From positions 1 to 60,730 of the forward strand of contig JAPEUI010000099.1 in NCBI GenBank assembly GCA_026025075.1: 60,730 nt of DNA, read 5' to 3'. The notes under the pieces were generated by a model that searched no databases, was not told the origin of the DNA, and saw nothing but the letters and a program-made list of their open reading frames with translations. The stretch is from Vezdaea acicularis. Taxonomy: Eukaryota. Made by a program: the position numbers and the translations under genes. Shown in pieces: positions 1 to 9,900 of this stretch (position 1 is the stretch's first letter; each line of letters starts with the position of its first letter).

Positions 1-335
1 CCTCTTTCCAGCGCGCGGCACACAGACACCATTTGCAGCCGCCCGTAAGCCCGATGCTGCGCAGGTCGTTGCCCCGCGAGGCGGAGAAGGTGAGGAATTC
101 GTCTGTTACTTCCGCTGGAAGGGGGGGGCTGTTAGCTGGGAAGCGAGGGGGGGGAGGGGTATGGAGGGAGAGAAGGAGGGAAGGAGCAAGAAGGAACCGT
201 ACCTGCAACAGCATGATTTCCCGTATCCTCCGGCCCGACATCGCAATATCCATTACGGTAGAACCCCGTCATGGGCGATTTGGAAAAGAGGGCTAGTGGT
301 TTGCCAAGGACGTTCAGGCTTTTCGTGCTGGCCAT
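1..335 (-). CDS. DUF2237 family protein (3' end runs off the window)
   Basis: ATG at 335 gives MASTKSLNVLGKPLALFSKSPMTGFYRNGYCDVGPEDTGNHAVA. A GT-AG intron at 202-115 (CTAAC branch near 131-135) leads to AEVTDEFLTFSASRGNDLRSIGLTGGCKWCLCAARWKE. The NVLG..L / TGFYR.GYC / WCLCA.RW motifs are typical of DUF2237. Confidence 0.85.
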
Positions 336-4536: not shown

Positions 4537-6791
4537 ATGGCTTCTCTTACAATTCCGCCTGTCGGCCTATTGCTGCAGGGCTCCCCGGATGTCGACATTG
4601 GTAATCCACGTCCCGGCACTAAGCCACCGCAGGCGATGCGGCTCAGTCTGCCCGACAATTTGATAAAAGAGCTCTTGAAGAGCGAATCGAGAGGGAAGAC
4701 CGCCCGGATAGCCTTCGGGAACACTATAGTAAGTAAAAAAAACCATGCCCGCTGGACCGGAGACTTTACTCACCGATCTACCATTTTTAGTTTCTCCACT
4801 ATGGGGAGCAGAAGAGGGAAGTTCTCCAGACCACGGAGAACTTCCGACACGAACTTTATCGCCCGGTCAAAGGTGCTGAGAGTGAGAAACTGTCTTTTGC
4901 AGGGATCGTGAGCCACAACCTTGAAGTGCAGGACATCGAGAAGGTTCCCACTAGCGAAGATCCTGCAGTCCTTGCTCTCAAGGAGAAGTATGCCGCCATT
5001 GAGCAGGCAAGGAAATCTCATACGTAGGATACCTTCAATTCTGCCTGTATTATTGCAAAGCTGACAAGCATTCCTAATAGAACTACTTACGTCGGCGGCA
5101 CGTCTCCGCTCCCTCCCGCAGTCTCTGGCAGACGTGGGCTTGTCAAGGCCAATCAGCCAAAGGGACGTCTAGACTCCCACCGAACCAAGCTTCTTGGGAA
5201 TGGGCTCACTCGATCAATGCCGACTAGCCCAGCTCTGGGAGCTTCACGGTCGCCTATGATCACTGCACAGCCGCCTCCCACCTCCACCCCAGTGCTTCAG
5301 GATGAGAAGGCCATGAAGCTGCAAGCTCTTCGAAAGCCCTTCATACATCTCATGGCTATCGAACCCATCTTAGAAAAGCACTTGATCCAGAAGACTCGCT
5401 GCTCAACGACCGAGTGTGCGCAGCTGTTGAAGAAGGTCGGCAGACTCACAAGAGATAATTTGGCGTGGGAGTTGTCCGATAGGACCTATAAGGATCTCGA
5501 TGTTTGGACATTCCCGTATCCTAGTCAAGCGGCTCGGCAGTCAGCCATTCAAAACGCCATCTCCGCATTTGACCGCATGAGAATAGGAAAGGAAGAGCCC
5601 ATTTGGCAAAACTTACTTCCGAAGCACGAGCGAGGCAGGGGTAAAGTTCTGTCACGCCTAGATCTTGACCGTGGGCCTACTAGACAGGCTGGTTCAACTC
5701 CAACTATCCGGGTGCAGCGAGCTGAGGACCCGACCCCGAAGTCTAAGTCTTCTTCGCCAGAGAAGGAGGACCTCGCTAGTAAAGCTGCTGGAGAGAGCAA
5801 AGTCCGTTCTGCGTCTCAGCCACCCACGAAAAGACAAAAGATCAGTGAGAGGGAATTGCAGTCACGACGACTTCTGACAACGAACTCTTCAGACATGGCC
5901 AAGTCAAAGTCGGCTCGATCAATTCAGAAATCTTCCACAAGCAAAACGAGTACTAAATATAAATCAGAGGAGTTTGTACAAGACTCTGACTCACCTGAGG
6001 AGAAGGCACCATCTCGAGCTGCTCCGATCAAGACTGCTACCTCGTCTCACTCTGCGCAAGGGAATGAAAGCAAAATCCGGCAGAGGCCTCATGCATTAGA
6101 TTCGAATAGTTCATCTTCTTCGTCGAAAACTATTGCTACAAAGTCGACACACAATAAGAAGCCATCCGCAACTCTCGACACGCCTAAAGCCAAACCTCTC
6201 CCCTCCCAGTCACCTCGTCTTGATGGGAATGTGCGCAATGGCCATGCTCGCCACAGGAGCAGCACTTCACCTCAAAAGCCATCTCCTCTATCATCTCCTC
6301 CCGAAAACATGTCAGAGCTAGAAATGGATGAATACAACATTATATCATCATCATCATCTTCGCCTCTCATCAATCAAGTTCGAAGGAGCCTTGCTACACC
6401 GTCGCTTGTTGGAGATACATCGTCAACTGCTCGCGAATCCTCACGTAATGACGCCAACTCATTGAAGCGCAAGTTCGACGACACGGACTCGAGTGATTTC
6501 AAGGCTCCTTCTCAGAGTGGTGTAAATGGATTCGGCTCTCATCATTCAACCACGAAGAAATACCCGGAGGTCTTCTCGTCATCGAGCAGTGGTACGACCC
6601 CTGACAAGAAAAACCACGCTTTGAATCTTGCGAAGCGCTTCAAACACCTCTACAAGAGATATGAGAATCTTCACCGCGAAGTCTCCGCGCAGTCGAAGCC
6701 AGACTCTACGAAGGTGACAGAAGTTAAGAGACTACATAAGAGGCTCGCGGAGTGGAAGAGACAGATCGCCGAAGCGGCAGAAGAACTATGA
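4537..6791 (+). CDS. RNA polymerase II elongation factor ELL-like protein
   Basis: ATG 4537, with introns 4729-4790 and 5024-5080 joining to ORF 5217-6791. The central segment RKPFIHLMAIEP...WELSDRTYKDLDVWTFPY resembles the ELL winged-helix region. A long S/K-rich linker is followed by a helical C-terminus (KRFKHLYKRYENLH...RLAEWKRQI) resembling the occludin/ELL domain. Confidence 0.65.
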
Positions 6792-7207
6792 GATGTGAAC
6801 CAGACATCCCAAAGCTCATGTACTTCAGGAACGGTACACATGTGTGTTACGAGAGAATTACGACTGCATTAGATTGGTGATACCTCAGGGCCTGGGATTG
6901 GAGAATGATTGCATGTGGCGTACCAACGAATTCGGCTGGGATCTGTGATCAAATACTGGCATGATCACGATTATTTGATCGGAGCTGCGATACCCTGTCT
7001 CGAAATAGAGAAGTCCTATACAACAGAAGATATAGAGTGCAATGAAAGTATCAAAATTAGCCAAAGTCGCAGAAACCCTGCGTGCGTTTTGGTGATCCCT
7101 TTGCCCACACTCGCTTCATCTCCTAACCTGCTCTCGTGAGTCAAGCCCCACCAAAACTGCCACACTTCGCTTCTCTCGCCCGCCCTAAAAATTTCCCCAA
7201 GCCCCAC

Positions 7208-7214
7208 TATAAAA
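7208..7214 (+). promoter_or_regulatory. Candidate TATA box (TATAAAA) about 40 nt upstream of the RNase P RNA
   Basis: Sequence match and position only. Confidence 0.3.
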
Positions 7215-7250
7215 TCCAGCTCGCGCTCACTTTACCGCTCTTCTCTCCTC

Positions 7251-7763
7251 ACGTCGTCCCCACCACCGCCGCGTTTCTTTGCCACGAACAGACCGTCGGG
7301 TTCTCATACCCGACCGTCACGGCAACGGCCTTGGGTCTTACGAAAAAGGTGGTCAAATACCTTTCCTCGTGGGAACCAATGGTCCCGTCATCACACATGC
7401 AAATGAGAAATTCGGAGTAATCTTCACTCAGCATCGTCCACGTCTTTCTTTCTCTTTTCTTGGGGGCAACTCTGGGGGGAGGGGGAGGAGGCGTGGATTT
7501 TGTGCTCTGCCCGAGAGGGCCTGGCGTGCGTCGCGCGCTTGCAATTGGCATCAGAAAAGCAGGGCCGGTCACCTGAACCGTAGTAGCTCCGGCGAATGGT
7601 GAAGGGGGCCGGTTCCCTATGGGAGGGTCGTTGCGAAGATTGTGGGTGGTTCCTCTTTTTGGGGGGCTACGCCACTTGAGTGCAATACGCGGCGTACGTC
7701 TCTACTCTCCTTGGGGGGTAGAGGCGTGCCATTCGATTCCGATTACTCTGGTGGGGACGACGT
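7251..7763 (+). ncRNA. RPR1: Nuclear RNase P RNA
   Basis: Perfect 15-bp P1 (acgtcgtccccacca 7251-7265 / tggtggggacgacgt 7749-7763) and P2 (gccgcgt 7268-7274 / acgcggc 7687-7693). CR-I GAGAAATTCGGAG is at 7405-7417, a GAGA-tetraloop hairpin at 7509-7520, CR-II-like CAGAAA near 7552 and CR-IV TTGAGTGCAAT at 7676-7686. P15- and P19-like hairpins are present, and CR-V CGATTCCGATTAC (7734-7746) can pair with CR-I to form P4. The motifs match yeast RPR1 (GGGAAAUUCGGUG, UUGAGUGCAAU, CGAUACCGAUUAC) in the same order. Confidence 0.93.
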
Positions 7764-7766
7764 CAC

Positions 7767-7772
7767 TTTTTT
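7767..7772 (+). terminator. T6 run directly after RNase P RNA P1 (possible Pol III terminator or polypyrimidine tract)
   Basis: cacTTTTTTcttttcag, starting 4 nt after the predicted mature 3' end. Confidence 0.4.
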
Positions 7773-7859
7773 CTTTTCAGAAGGTGAGTATTCTCATGGG
7801 CATGATTGTCACTCTGTTTCTCTAAGCTCCGGAATTGGTAGGATGCTAGCTAATCTGTT

Positions 7860-8673
7860 CTACTTTGTCGTGGCTTGCTCCTCTTTTAGAGACCCCCGCT
7901 TGTACATGATATCAGTCCTCATGCTATACTTAGTGCCCGCGCGGACCTTATCTCCCGAATGCAAGAGCGGATGAGTAAAAACCAACACTCGCCCTGTCTT
8001 GCACTCCACGTCATAGCGGATGTCTCTGTCGGTCGGGCTGTGGAAAGGTGTTGCGCCTCCCTTGAACATTTCGTTGCCGGGTGTAGTAGCATCGTTCAGG
8101 TAGAGGTGTAGAGTCACAAAAGAGACCTCGGTATTGTCGGGAGTCCCATACGAGCCGTCACCGTGCGCTGGATGCTACTTGTTAGTCAGAGTCTGGATAT
8201 ACCATAAGTGCTGTAGACTGACGTTCAAAGTAGTCACCTGGCTCATATCTCAAGAATCTCATGCGCTCGTTCAGCCTACTGAGCGACCAATTGACCAATT
8301 TGTGTCTGTATCTTACTCCCACATCATCTCCCGTCGCAATATCGGAGGCTAGATAAGGGAGAATGCGTGACCAAAGCCTGTCAGCAAGCTCTGGAGAATC
8401 CCAGATGATCCTCCCGGATTTGCGATAGTTGATGTCCAGCATCTGCATGTCGCCCCCCATGTTGACCATGGCTTGCTCCCAAACGCCCTCATTCAGATCC
8501 TCGGCCGCTTTGATCAGAGCCGCGCACTCCTCCGCTGAGAGCACATTATCCAGTATCACCGCGTACATCCCCTCGTAGAATGGCAGCGGCGTCTTCAGGA
8601 AATCAATCTTCTGCTTGACGATCTCCGGGCCAGGGCCGAGCAGTAAGCCCTCTGGTAGTGGACCTGTAGGCAT
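7860..8673 (-). CDS. 2-oxoglutarate/Fe(II)-dependent dioxygenase (prolyl 4-hydroxylase alpha-like)
   Basis: ATG 8673 and intron 8222-8168 give LNERMRFLRYEPGDYFEPHGDG (HxD motif), TLHLYLN, GGAT.F, LLHSG (distal His) and KYSMRTDIMY (2OG-binding residues). Confidence 0.88.
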
Positions 8674-9900
8674 TGTTATGAAGTTTCTTTTGTGAGACAA
8701 TAATATATGTTTCTGGCCGAGTGATGAGAGAGCGAGCGGAAAGGACCGATTTATAGTGGAGCGGTTTTGGGGGGATTTCAAGGCGTTCTGACACAGTAAA
8801 TAGTGTTGTACGGCACCTTTTTGTTGATGCCTGGCTCGCTAAGCCCGGCGAGTCATTCTGTCTGCCTTGGCCTTAGCCATGAGGCCGTCATTGGTTTGAG
8901 GGCTCTGTAGCGGATGGCAGCCTGGCGAAGTTTACGGGTTAGGTTTGGAGGTAATACTACATGCCGTCGCGGTGGCTACCTCGAATGTCGCACGGTTGTA
9001 GTTTGGCTGGTTCGCGGCATTCGGTAGGGACTACGCGGGGAGCATTATATTGTGCTACAGCGCAGTACAATATAAGATAGTAGAGTACAGTACAGGGCCC
9101 ATCTCACAATTCCAATATGCAAATTATGATAGATTTGTCTTCCGAAAAGCTGGACAGTAGACCGTGAGACCACGCAAAAGCAGCGAAAGAAATTGTTTCA
9201 GAACCGCTACAGGAACCGTAGCTTTCCGCGCTCGCTCATTGGCTGCGTGCCTGGACCGCCTCTCAACGCTTTGGATCAGCCGTCTTGACTCTGCTCCCCC
9301 CCCAGCTCAGAAGCCATCTGGTAATGTGTCTGATCTGTAGAAGAGGGTTTCATGCTGCGTTTTGGCTTAGTGATTGATACTTGCTACAGTATCGTGCGCT
9401 CATGTGAGATGCAGGGATCGGCGGGTGTTGCTGCACTTTCCATCGGATCTGCCGAATCCAATAAGTCCTAGCCAGCCACAGTCGAAATTAAGCCGGTGGC
9501 TTGCTCTTGAGGTGCCAAGGTGCCCACTTTCGCTCTAGCTCGCTTCCGGCCTGAAGGACAACCCCTTCAAACATCGTCAGTTCTCGTTCATCTAACCCAC
9601 CAGCCTCCATCAACGGCGCGACACCGATCATTCACCGCCTCGCCGACGAAGAGGCTCGAGCTTGAGGCTCCCCTTGCTCTTTCTCGAGAGTCTTCCGTAC
9701 GAGCTAGACTTGGAAATTTGCTCCGTCGCGGATGTGGCTTGGACGCGATCGGTAGCGGATCACCTTGGACGACGATTGACCGACCCACAATTCCCTCACT
9801 CAATCTCATCACTTCGCATTCGACTACGTCGACCCTTCATCTCGACAGAGGAGGCTCTGTGCTTTGGCCTATCAATTAGACGGACGATAATACCGCCATC

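Follow-up and report, generated by a model that had tools for sequence, protein, structure and literature searches.

The window (the whole 60,730-nt stretch of DNA that was analysed) contains on its plus strand a nuclear RNase P RNA of ~514 nt, which extends from 7251 to about 7766 (3' end predicted); RNase P is the enzyme by which transfer RNAs are trimmed. We read its gene as an independent unit that is Pol II-like rather than Pol III-like, and whose 3' end would be made by the spliceosome at 7783/7784 (probability about 0.6). A 5' splice site and a branch site follow the RNA in 49 clusters of related loci, with a spacer of randomised sequence between them, and this lends strong comparative support to one of two models put forward in an earlier sequence-only reading, namely a spliceosomal precursor end at this junction. 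Dozens of related fungi retain the splice signals, which suggests that the RNA end is made by the splicing machinery and not at the usual Pol III stop signal. To our knowledge, spliceosomal cleavage as a route to an RNA 3' end is known for telomerase RNA only.

Table 1. Features of the RNase P RNA locus and its surroundings (window coordinates)
Feature	Position	Strand	Remarks
TGAGTCA, promoter-like element	7137..7143	+	contains most of GTGAGT 7136-7141
TATAAAA	7208..7214	+	43 nt before first P1 base
Pyrimidine-rich tract ending in C	7217..7250	+	directly before A7251; CA at putative start
P1, 5' strand	7251..7265	+	from fold; 15 bp with 7749-7763
CR-I (5' strand of P4)	7405..7417	+	RF00009 alignment
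Internal T5 run	7656..7660	+	inside RNase P RNA
CR-IV	7679-7686	+	RF00009 alignment
CR-V (3' strand of P4)	7731..7748	+	RF00009 alignment; 18-mer used as search pattern
P1, 3' strand	7749..7763	+	from fold
Trailer, pyrimidine/U-rich (CAC, T6, C, T4, CAGAAG)	7764..7783	+	between P1 and 5' splice site
5' splice site AAG/GTGAGT	7781..7789	+	predicted cleavage between 7783 and 7784; kept in 49 clusters
Branch site GGATGCTAGCTAAT	7841..7854	+	predicted branch A7853, 69 nt after G7784
First AG after branch point (TAG)	7887..7889	+	36 nt from A7853; candidate, unconserved 3' splice site
Convergent neighbour, 2OG-Fe(II) oxygenase-like gene	7860..8838	-	PF13640, 27.4 bits (cut-off 27), E 6.6e-6

At the gathering threshold, Rfam gave no match in the window, and the RF00009 score of the RNA (18.8 bits, E 0.0029) lies below the gathering score of 28. 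Judged by its conserved elements and its relatives, the element is nevertheless a nuclear RNase P RNA, because CR-I, CR-IV and CR-V are present and 24 of the 31 tested relatives with the same layout score above the RF00009 threshold (29.3–50.7 bits). CR-I pairs with CR-V as P4 in the RF00009 alignment of the window RNA, which is ~100 nt longer than the median among relatives (514 vs 416). The RNA folds with an MFE of -252.7 as compared to a shuffle mean of -195.7 (z -9.67). P1 reaches -22 kcal/mol or better in 37 of the 38 clusters with enough upstream sequence and is kept by compensatory changes, both strands varying across clusters among the matches listed. A metatranscriptome contig is identical to the window over 7398-7712, in a type of library that can contain DNA; it is one of five contigs that could be placed in a single run covered as contigs only (word share 0.30), the other four deriving from related RNase P RNAs, and all five stop short of the leader, the trailer and the splice signals.

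Related loci were collected by scanning metagenomes with the CR-V 18-mer, which yielded at least 109 loci, all of them exact carriers of the 18-mer. After 14 chance matches had been dropped and near-duplicates merged, the remaining 95 loci and the window formed 55 clusters among the matches listed, 54 of them with at least 100 nt of downstream sequence. Forty-nine clusters, including the window, share the same layout without a GGGTAAC motif (among the matches listed); the clusters are not phylogenetically independent. The RNase P RNA relatives, together with the style of introns and promoter, mark the source organism as a fungus. In the loci, Rfam recognised nothing but RNase P RNA and, in those of the rDNA type, LSU rRNA. 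The five clusters without splice signals carry T runs after P1, and two of them lie in rDNA: clusters L043 (members L018, L061 and L071) and L048 adjoin the LSU rRNA 3' end, like the RNase P RNA of the Auricularia rDNA spacer as described in the available text of PMC9849065. These rDNA-type loci lack the 5' splice site and the branch site and have T runs and CMGGGTAAC instead, whereas the window gene is situated outside rDNA.

A 5' splice site-like sequence was present at +28..42 after CR-V in 49 of the 54 clusters as compared to 12.6% of 30,133 control windows; two of the 49 sites (L006, L070) were placed by hand. The family has the form (C/A)AG/GTNNGT and lies 14–21 nt past P1 in the 35 clusters in which the gap could be measured, with the window site 21 nt past the last P1 pair. 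Position -2, which was outside the search pattern, is A in 42/49 clusters, and position -1, likewise outside the pattern but weighed when choosing among candidates, is G in 44/49. GT and the +5 G occur in 49/49 clusters, partly as a result of how the sites were picked, and position +6 is T in 34/49. Together with the branch core ACTRCTRAY, the 5' splice site was found in 39/54 clusters and in 2 of the 30,133 control windows. GTRAGT by itself occurs 24 times on the plus strand and 13 times on the minus strand of the window; in a post hoc sliding test, copies ≤150 nt upstream and ≤40 nt downstream of a 508-nt span coincided at 0.07% of positions. Both GTGAGT copies reported by the sequence-only reading are present at 7136-7141 and 7784-7789, and the distances given for them, 115 nt ahead of P1 and 21 nt beyond it, fit a P1 formed by 7251-7265 and 7749-7763.

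The branch site lies 29–89 nt beyond the 5' splice site across clusters and follows an extended consensus, GGATACTRCTRAY, of which at least 10 of 13 positions are matched in 40/49 clusters (among the matches listed). The branch adenosine is invariant in these 40 clusters (40/40), every substitution at motif positions 3, 5, 8 and 11 is an A/G exchange, and the sequence flanking the motif is unconserved. The remaining nine of the 49 clusters, the window included, have GCTRAY; in the window this is the GCTAAT noted earlier at 7849-7854, and the complete site, GGATGCTAGCTAAT, is one base longer than the family consensus, which it matches at 8/13 positions when aligned without a gap. The extended motif presumably provides additional pairing with U2, to GUAGUA and its next bases. 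Since the ACTRCTRAY core occurs just four times elsewhere in 282 kb of loci, it is not used by the ordinary introns of these contigs. The spacer between 5' splice site and branch site has a median pairwise identity of 0.47 as compared to 0.46 for shuffled pairs, and grouping of spacers at 70% identity or more leaves 43 groups. Pairing of the branch motif with the RNase P RNA itself was considered and rejected, as a complementary 6-mer is found in 1/35 RNAs.

No 3' splice site is conserved across the 49 clusters among the matches listed. The first AG follows the branch A by 4–99 nt and is a YAG in 13/49 clusters (background 0.40, p 0.03) and a GAG in 23/49 (background 0.30, p 0.009). The distance is within 7–25 nt in 29/49 clusters and did not differ from that in 24 control candidate introns, a motif-defined, small and noisy set (Mann-Whitney p 0.30). 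In the window, the AG at 7888-7889 is indeed the first after A7853, as had been reported; its TAG is preceded by a pyrimidine-rich stretch (0.79) and falls in the coding region of the convergent minus-strand gene (ORF 7860..8174). The control-like spacing and the pyrimidine stretch ending in TAG thus leave room for complete splicing. Possible impediments to the second step are the extended branch motif, a C at 5' splice site position +3 (8/49 clusters), a non-YAG first AG (36/49) and, in the window, the 36-nt distance. We consider first-step release, as in telomerase RNA, somewhat likelier than complete splicing followed by trimming.

From the signals, their positions and their conservation we infer the following route, in which polymerase, cleavage and trimming are all proposed steps. 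Transcription would begin at A7251 or slightly upstream of it, with TGAGTCA, TATAAAA and the pyrimidine tract on its 5' side, and would proceed through the RNA and beyond the U-rich trailer. The spliceosome would then assemble on the 5' splice site (7784) and the extended branch site (7841-7854, A7853), and its first catalytic step would cut at 7783/7784 and thereby free the RNase P RNA as a 5' exon, whose ~20-nt trailer may subsequently be trimmed towards P1 or the U tract. The more general proposal that the RNase P RNA, an essential ribozyme RNA, has left Pol III in a large group of filamentous fungi, and is made as a Pol II transcript that is cut at its 3' end by the first step and released without exon ligation, with the spliceosome held by the extended branch site and in some lineages by GUCAGU, is tentative and in our estimate falls somewhat short of even odds.

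The closest known system is telomerase RNA, whose mature end is directly followed by a U/pyrimidine-rich motif, by a 5' splice site and by a branch site (PMC4299874, available text). The layout behind a structured noncoding RNA, with 5' splice site and branch site after a U/pyrimidine-rich stretch, is the same here as in Schizosaccharomyces pombe TER1 and the telomerase RNAs of other fission yeasts, Aspergillus and Neurospora (available parts of PMC4299874 and PMC4993307). As a candidate Sm/Lsm-type site, this stretch has a T run of 5 or more in 36/49 clusters and no more than T3–T4 in the other 13. In telomerase RNA the second step is blocked via hyperstabilisation of U2 or U6, including by GUCAGU (PMC4299874, as far as its accessible text goes); the candidate stalls at the RNase P RNA loci are the extended branch site, the +3 C and the absence of a conserved YAG. 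The loci differ from telomerase RNA in the kind of RNA, RNase P RNA, in the first intron base, which is G in 49/49 clusters as opposed to A in Aspergillus telomerase RNA introns, and in a 13-nt branch motif specific to these loci. Like the RNase P RNAs of insects and crustaceans, as portrayed in the available text of PMC6797745, the window RNA would probably depend on Pol II, tolerate T runs in its interior and require trimming. Insect and crustacean RNase P RNA, however, resides inside an intron of a protein-coding host, whereas the window RNA is placed as an exon upstream of the 5' splice site and has no conserved host.

If our reading is true, RNase P RNA would follow telomerase RNA as the second class of natural substrates whose 3' ends the spliceosome processes, and the biogenesis of the two RNAs would be tied together. 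RNase P RNA and telomerase RNA share Pop proteins. It would also mean that RNase P RNA has changed its polymerase twice, once here and once, independently, in insects and crustaceans (PMC6797745, available text). According to the accessible text of Kannan et al. (PMC4299874), computational searches for further substrates of spliceosomal cleavage had been hampered; with the two splice signals downstream of RNase P RNA in 43 or more diverged lineages, there is now a second candidate that is concrete and can be clearly assayed. The sequence-only reading knew of no description of either of its models for a fungal RNase P RNA, and our literature search, which covered texts mostly outside subscription journals, likewise found no description of splice signals or Pol II transcription for this RNA in fungi. 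In the accessible portions of the literature on 'spliceosomal cleavage' from 2015 on, nearly all entries concern telomerase or telomeres (the exceptions deal with Gene Ontology annotation and drug repositioning) and none the biogenesis of RNase P RNA. The flank motif also aids the annotation of long RNase P RNAs that are missed by Rfam, such as the one in the window (18.8 vs 28 bits).

The region upstream of the RNA has promoter-like features of its own. TGAGTCA, which we take to be a bZIP/Gcn4-type core, has counterparts in the relatives: GAGTCA occurs in 11/33 upstream regions (-150..-1) as compared to 2.9% of 956 windows of background sequence (p about 1e-9), TGACTC is present in further clusters, and GAGTCA in either orientation is found in 16/33. 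TATAAAA has three copies only on both strands of the window, but TATAWA at -40..-50 occurs in just 5/37 clusters, which speaks against our reading. The mean pyrimidine fraction in 33 clusters is 0.77 at -40..-1 vs 0.52 at -200..-101, and P1 begins with c/AAGC in most clusters and with c/ACGT in the window. Pol II start sites of Aspergillus nidulans coincide with CA, are surrounded by pyrimidine-rich sequence from -50 to +25 and have a TATA element 30–45 nt upstream (PMC4046813, available text). By analogy with these start sites, the pyrimidine tract and the C/A junction match the composition of a Pol II core promoter.

The alternative that fares best, although we regard it as unlikely, is an ordinary Pol III gene ending at 7767-7772 with splice signals of secondary importance that serve, for example, to dispose of read-through or invading Pol II transcripts. 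From yeast to human, RNase P RNA is as a rule transcribed by Pol III (PMC6797745, available text), and the window gene resembles Saccharomyces cerevisiae RPR1 and other Pol III genes in its CR-I, CR-IV, CR-V, P1 and P4 and in the T run after P1. This T6 run (7767-7772) lies four bases past P1, and the longest T run between P1 and the 5' splice site is T5 in 17 of the 49 clusters and at least T6 in another 19, so that 36/49 have T5 or longer there; 27/35 RNAs have no internal run above T4, and the five clusters without splice signals, two of them in rDNA, have T runs after P1 as well. The trailer is a possible Pol III terminator or a possible U tract at which trimming stops. Against a Pol III gene and unlike RPR1, 13/49 clusters have at most T4 before the 5' splice site, and the internal T5 run of the window, pointed out in the sequence-only reading as awkward for Pol III, has equivalents of T5 or longer in 8/35 clusters, including runs of T10, T7 and T6 inside three RNAs. 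The leaders are also unlike that of RPR1 in that A-box-like motifs occur in 2/35 and B-box-like motifs in 1/35, with none of either in the window as searched with consensus patterns, in agreement with what had been observed for the window before. CR-V resembles a B-box, a likeness that was set aside as CR-V was the search pattern and is invariant by construction. The downstream splice signals are conserved, and their tight spacing of 14–21 nt to P1 and a branch motif special to these loci argue that their role is primary. The spliceosome makes poor use of Pol III transcripts as substrates. Promoter composition, missing A/B boxes, internal T runs and the lack of a T-run terminator in 13/49 clusters together point away from Pol III.

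It is less probable still that the U1 and U2 snRNPs bind these signals without cleavage, acting in termination, nuclear retention, quality control or RNP assembly, and that a nuclease or other pathway forms the 3' end. The conservation data would also fit such binding, the 3' splice site is unconserved, and two metatranscriptome contigs from related RNase P RNAs stop within the P1 3' strand, a weak hint given that contigs cannot show ends. The invariant branch A and the G residues at 5' splice site positions +1 and +5 are, however, catalytic residues and go beyond what binding would demand, and telomerase RNA, the sole precedent of this layout, does get cleaved (available text of PMC4299874).

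The other model of the sequence-only reading places the RNA inside an intron from 7136 to the AG at 7889 (or 7780), from which it would be released by excision; the host would be noncoding or a transcript that reads through from the upstream gene. We hold this model to be very improbable. The two GTGAGT copies and the branch point are indeed present, and insect RNase P RNA does derive from a Pol II intron (PMC6797745, available text). The upstream signal, however, is not kept: GTRAGT within ≤300 nt upstream was found at scattered positions in 6/37 clusters, with about 5 expected by chance, and the window copy overlaps TGAGTCA, whose GAGTCA recurs upstream in relatives. Of the flank motifs whose conservation the sequence-only reading proposed to check (GTRAGT...CTRAY), the downstream 5' splice site and branch site are kept and the upstream GTGAGT is not. 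In addition, the TATA box and the start-site-like composition lie inside the proposed intron, and since the conserved 5' splice site comes after the RNA, the RNA takes the place of an exon. An upstream intron ending at P1 was likewise rejected; in relatives AAG comes next after the pyrimidine tract, the window has no AG there, and an upstream 5' splice site is unconserved. Chance matches in an intergenic region, conceivable for short motifs such as GTRAGT and CTRAY that were picked after viewing the sequence, are refuted for the downstream pair by its joint frequency in clusters and control windows and by the randomised spacers between the signals, and have a negligible probability as an explanation of the locus; by the same sequence comparison, chance does account for the upstream GTGAGT as a splice site.

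The neighbouring genes differ between lineages, belong to several unrelated groups and are mostly convergent, with no conserved host, so that the splice signals appear to travel with the RNA gene. A shared downstream host was rejected, as there is no conserved same-strand gene or second RNA downstream. The 'ELL' label that had been given to the upstream ORF was left unconfirmed by Pfam, in which the ORF matched no family. In the window, the 3' end of the convergent 2OG-Fe(II) oxygenase-like gene overlaps the 3' part of the putative intron and is separate from the RNA gene. A copper ATPase is also encoded in the window.

The element between the two GTGAGT copies of the window is accepted here as a long RNase P RNA with a predicted length of about 514 nt, closed by a terminal helix (P1) of 15 bp and folding with an MFE of -252.7 kcal/mol versus -195.7 in shuffles (z -9.67). 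An Rfam search of the window at the gathering threshold gave no match, whereas relaxed Rfam filters gave a match to RF00009 (nuclear RNase P) of 18.8 bits (threshold 28; E 0.0029) in which CR-I, CR-IV and CR-V are aligned. The RNA falls below the threshold because of expansions, which lengthen it by about 100 nt beyond the median of its relatives; one of them is a long, nearly perfect hairpin in which a pyrimidine run pairs with a G-rich run. A match of this hairpin to MIR815 (19.6 bits, E 0.94) was rejected as spurious. One metatranscriptome, from biocrust, contains a contig identical to the window over 7398-7712. Among its contigs aligned over 7398-7761 are also some from at least two further RNase P RNAs, whose similarity to the window is confined to the CR-I and CR-V regions; two of these contigs stop within the P1 3' strand. 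Inspection of the sequence returned both GTGAGT copies of the sequence-only reading, and its GCTAAT, first AG and internal T5 run likewise lie where it had placed them.

Features of the RNase P RNA locus and its surroundings in the window
Feature	Position	Remark
Upstream ORF	5028-6791	587 aa, serine/lysine-rich
Upstream GTGAGT	7136-7141	
TGAGTCA	7137-7143	overlaps upstream GTGAGT
P1, 5' strand	7251-7265	pairs with 7749-7763
RF00009 match	7399-7752	relaxed filters
Hairpin	7435-7499	expansion within the RNA
Internal T5	7656-7660	
CR-V 18-mer	7731-7748	3' strand of P4
P1, 3' strand	7749-7763	
T6 run	7767-7772	
Downstream GTGAGT	7784-7789	5' splice site
Branch site GGATGCTAGCTAAT	7841-7854	one of nine clusters with GCTRAY
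GCTAAT	7849-7854	branch A at 7853
Overlap with end of 2OG-Fe(II) oxygenase-like gene	7860-7889	coding end at 7860; overlaps last 30 nt of putative intron, first AG included
First AG past branch A	7888-7889	distance 36 nt

Relatives were gathered by scanning public metagenome contigs with the CR-V 18-mer. At least 109 loci were obtained, and for 80 of these the sequence included flanks of up to 2 kb. Fourteen loci (L002, L007, L010, L030, L037, L038, L042, L047, L055, L058, L069, L075, L076 and L079) were removed as chance matches since they lacked any P1-like continuation. Joining loci with more than half of their 12-mers in common reduced 95 loci and the window to 55 clusters, of which 54 were usable after omission of L094 (15 nt downstream only): 49 of the main type, the window included, and five of a separate type. 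The RF00009 threshold was passed by 24 of 31 main-type loci tested.

A GTNNG-type site lies 30-41 nt past the 18-mer in 49/49 main-type clusters (those of L070, GTATGG, and L006 set by hand); among 30,133 control windows drawn from these loci, 12.6% have a 5' splice site-like sequence in the same position range. Position -2 is A in 42/49 and -1 is G in 44/49, neither being part of the search pattern; at +6, where the pattern admitted any base but G, 34/49 have T, and T predominates at -8 to -5. The last P1 pair precedes the site by 14-21 nt in the 35 clusters with a placeable P1. Beginning 29-89 nt downstream of the 5' splice site, a 13-nt branch motif, GGATACTRCTRAY, is matched at 10 or more positions in 40/49 clusters; all 40 share the branch A, and the columns on either side of the motif show no conservation. 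The other nine have GCTRAY. The 5' splice site combined with the core ACTRCTRAY was found in 39/54 clusters versus 2/30,133 control windows. Only four further copies of the motif exist in 282 kb of loci, thus ordinary introns of these contigs do not use it. Spacers between 5' splice site and branch site are as dissimilar as shuffled sequence (median identity 0.47 versus 0.46) and leave 43 groups at ≥70% identity, which reflects selection on the signals rather than recent common descent. A complement of the motif was present in only 1 of 35 RNase P RNAs searched, which suggests a trans-acting partner. Positions 3, 5, 8 and 11 of the motif vary between A and G only; the uridines of the U2 branch-recognition sequence are, we assume, their pairing partners, and such variation would preserve this pairing.

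In order, the loci thus comprise the RNA, a U/pyrimidine-rich trailer, a 5' splice site and a strong branch site; no fixed 3' splice site follows. From this conservation we infer that the 3' end of a Pol II-type precursor transcript is most likely (roughly 60% probability) set by the spliceosome acting at 7783/7784, in support of one of two models of the sequence-only reading. Fungal telomerase RNA genes have the same layout, and there the first step of splicing creates the 3' end, with the second stalled by U2 hyperstabilisation and a long branch-to-3' splice site distance or by a GUCAGU 5' splice site, as described in PMC4299874 and PMC4993307. Compared with these features, the branch site is extended here, and C is found at +3 in 8/49 clusters. 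We found no prior description of a spliceosomal 3' end for a fungal RNase P RNA in the mostly open-access literature searched.

Complete splicing of the precursor, through both steps, is a possible alternative. No 3' splice site downstream of the branch A is conserved among the 49 clusters, where the first AG follows after 4-99 nt and is YAG in 13 (background 0.40, p 0.03) and GAG in 23 (background 0.30, p 0.009). Against a reading without a conserved 3' splice site, this distance is 7-25 nt in 29/49 clusters, distances do not differ significantly from those of 24 motif-defined control introns (p 0.30), and in the window a TAG closes a stretch rich in pyrimidines. Pol III transcription ending in a T run past P1 is another possible reading, weakened by the T-run data. 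According to PMC6797745, Pol III transcribes the RNase P RNA genes of organisms from yeast to human, insects and crustaceans excepted. The T6 of the window, immediately past P1, is a textbook terminator, and 27/35 RNAs lack an internal run above T4. However, from P1 to the 5' splice site the longest run is at most T4 in 13/49 clusters (T5 in 17, T6 or longer in 19), and 8/35 RNAs carry T5 or longer internally, including T10 (L036), T7 (L014) and T6 (L016). The leaders bore out the reported absence of A and B boxes, with A-box-like motifs in 2/35 and B-box-like motifs in 1/35. Excision from an intron beginning at the upstream GTGAGT, the other proposed model, is not supported: the suggested comparison of flanks, made across the clusters, upheld the downstream signals but not the upstream GTRAGT, which occurs within 300 nt of P1 in 6/37 clusters, scattered and at about chance level.

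Upstream composition resembles that described for Pol II start sites in A. nidulans, namely pyrimidine-rich at -50 to +25, with an A/T peak at -45 to -30 and CA at the start (PMC4046813). The pyrimidine share is 77% in the 40 nt preceding P1 versus 52% farther upstream, P1 begins with A preceded by C in most clusters, and the window has TATAAAA at -43. GAGTCA, the sole enriched hexamer outside the pyrimidine tract, is upstream in 11/33 clusters versus 2.9% background, and in 16/33 in either orientation (GAGTCA/TGACTC), lying some 25-60 nt or about 113 nt ahead of the RNA gene; in the window it is part of TGAGTCA. This core presumably resembles a bZIP (Gcn4/CpcA-type) site, the factor being our guess; if so, amino-acid or general stress control would extend to RNase P RNA. 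The genes on either side belong to several unrelated groups, and in many cases the first gene downstream is convergent; hence the splice signals belong to the RNA gene itself. In the window this neighbour, the oxygenase-like gene, is also convergent, so any transcript through the splice signals would be antisense to its end. The upstream ORF, previously labelled ELL, matched no Pfam family at E 0.01, leaving that label unconfirmed. In most relatives the first bases of P1 are AAGC and the last are GCTT, with CA(C/A)C next to them; the window instead has ACGT...ACGT and a following CAC. The conserved CA past P1 may indicate where the mature RNA ends or where a protein binds.

The five separate-type clusters (L043, L048, L001, L039, L104) lack splice signals and have T runs past P1, T6 to T18 in four and T3 in L104. 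L043 groups with L018, L061, L071 and L109, and L001 with L029. One or more copies of CMGGGTAAC lie downstream, which we take to resemble a Reb1-type terminator or roadblock site. An Rfam search of L001, L039 and L104 gave no match. The L043 cluster and L048 adjoin the 3' end of LSU rRNA, i.e. lie in the rDNA spacer, the same arrangement as published for the RNase P RNA gene of Auricularia (PMC9849065).
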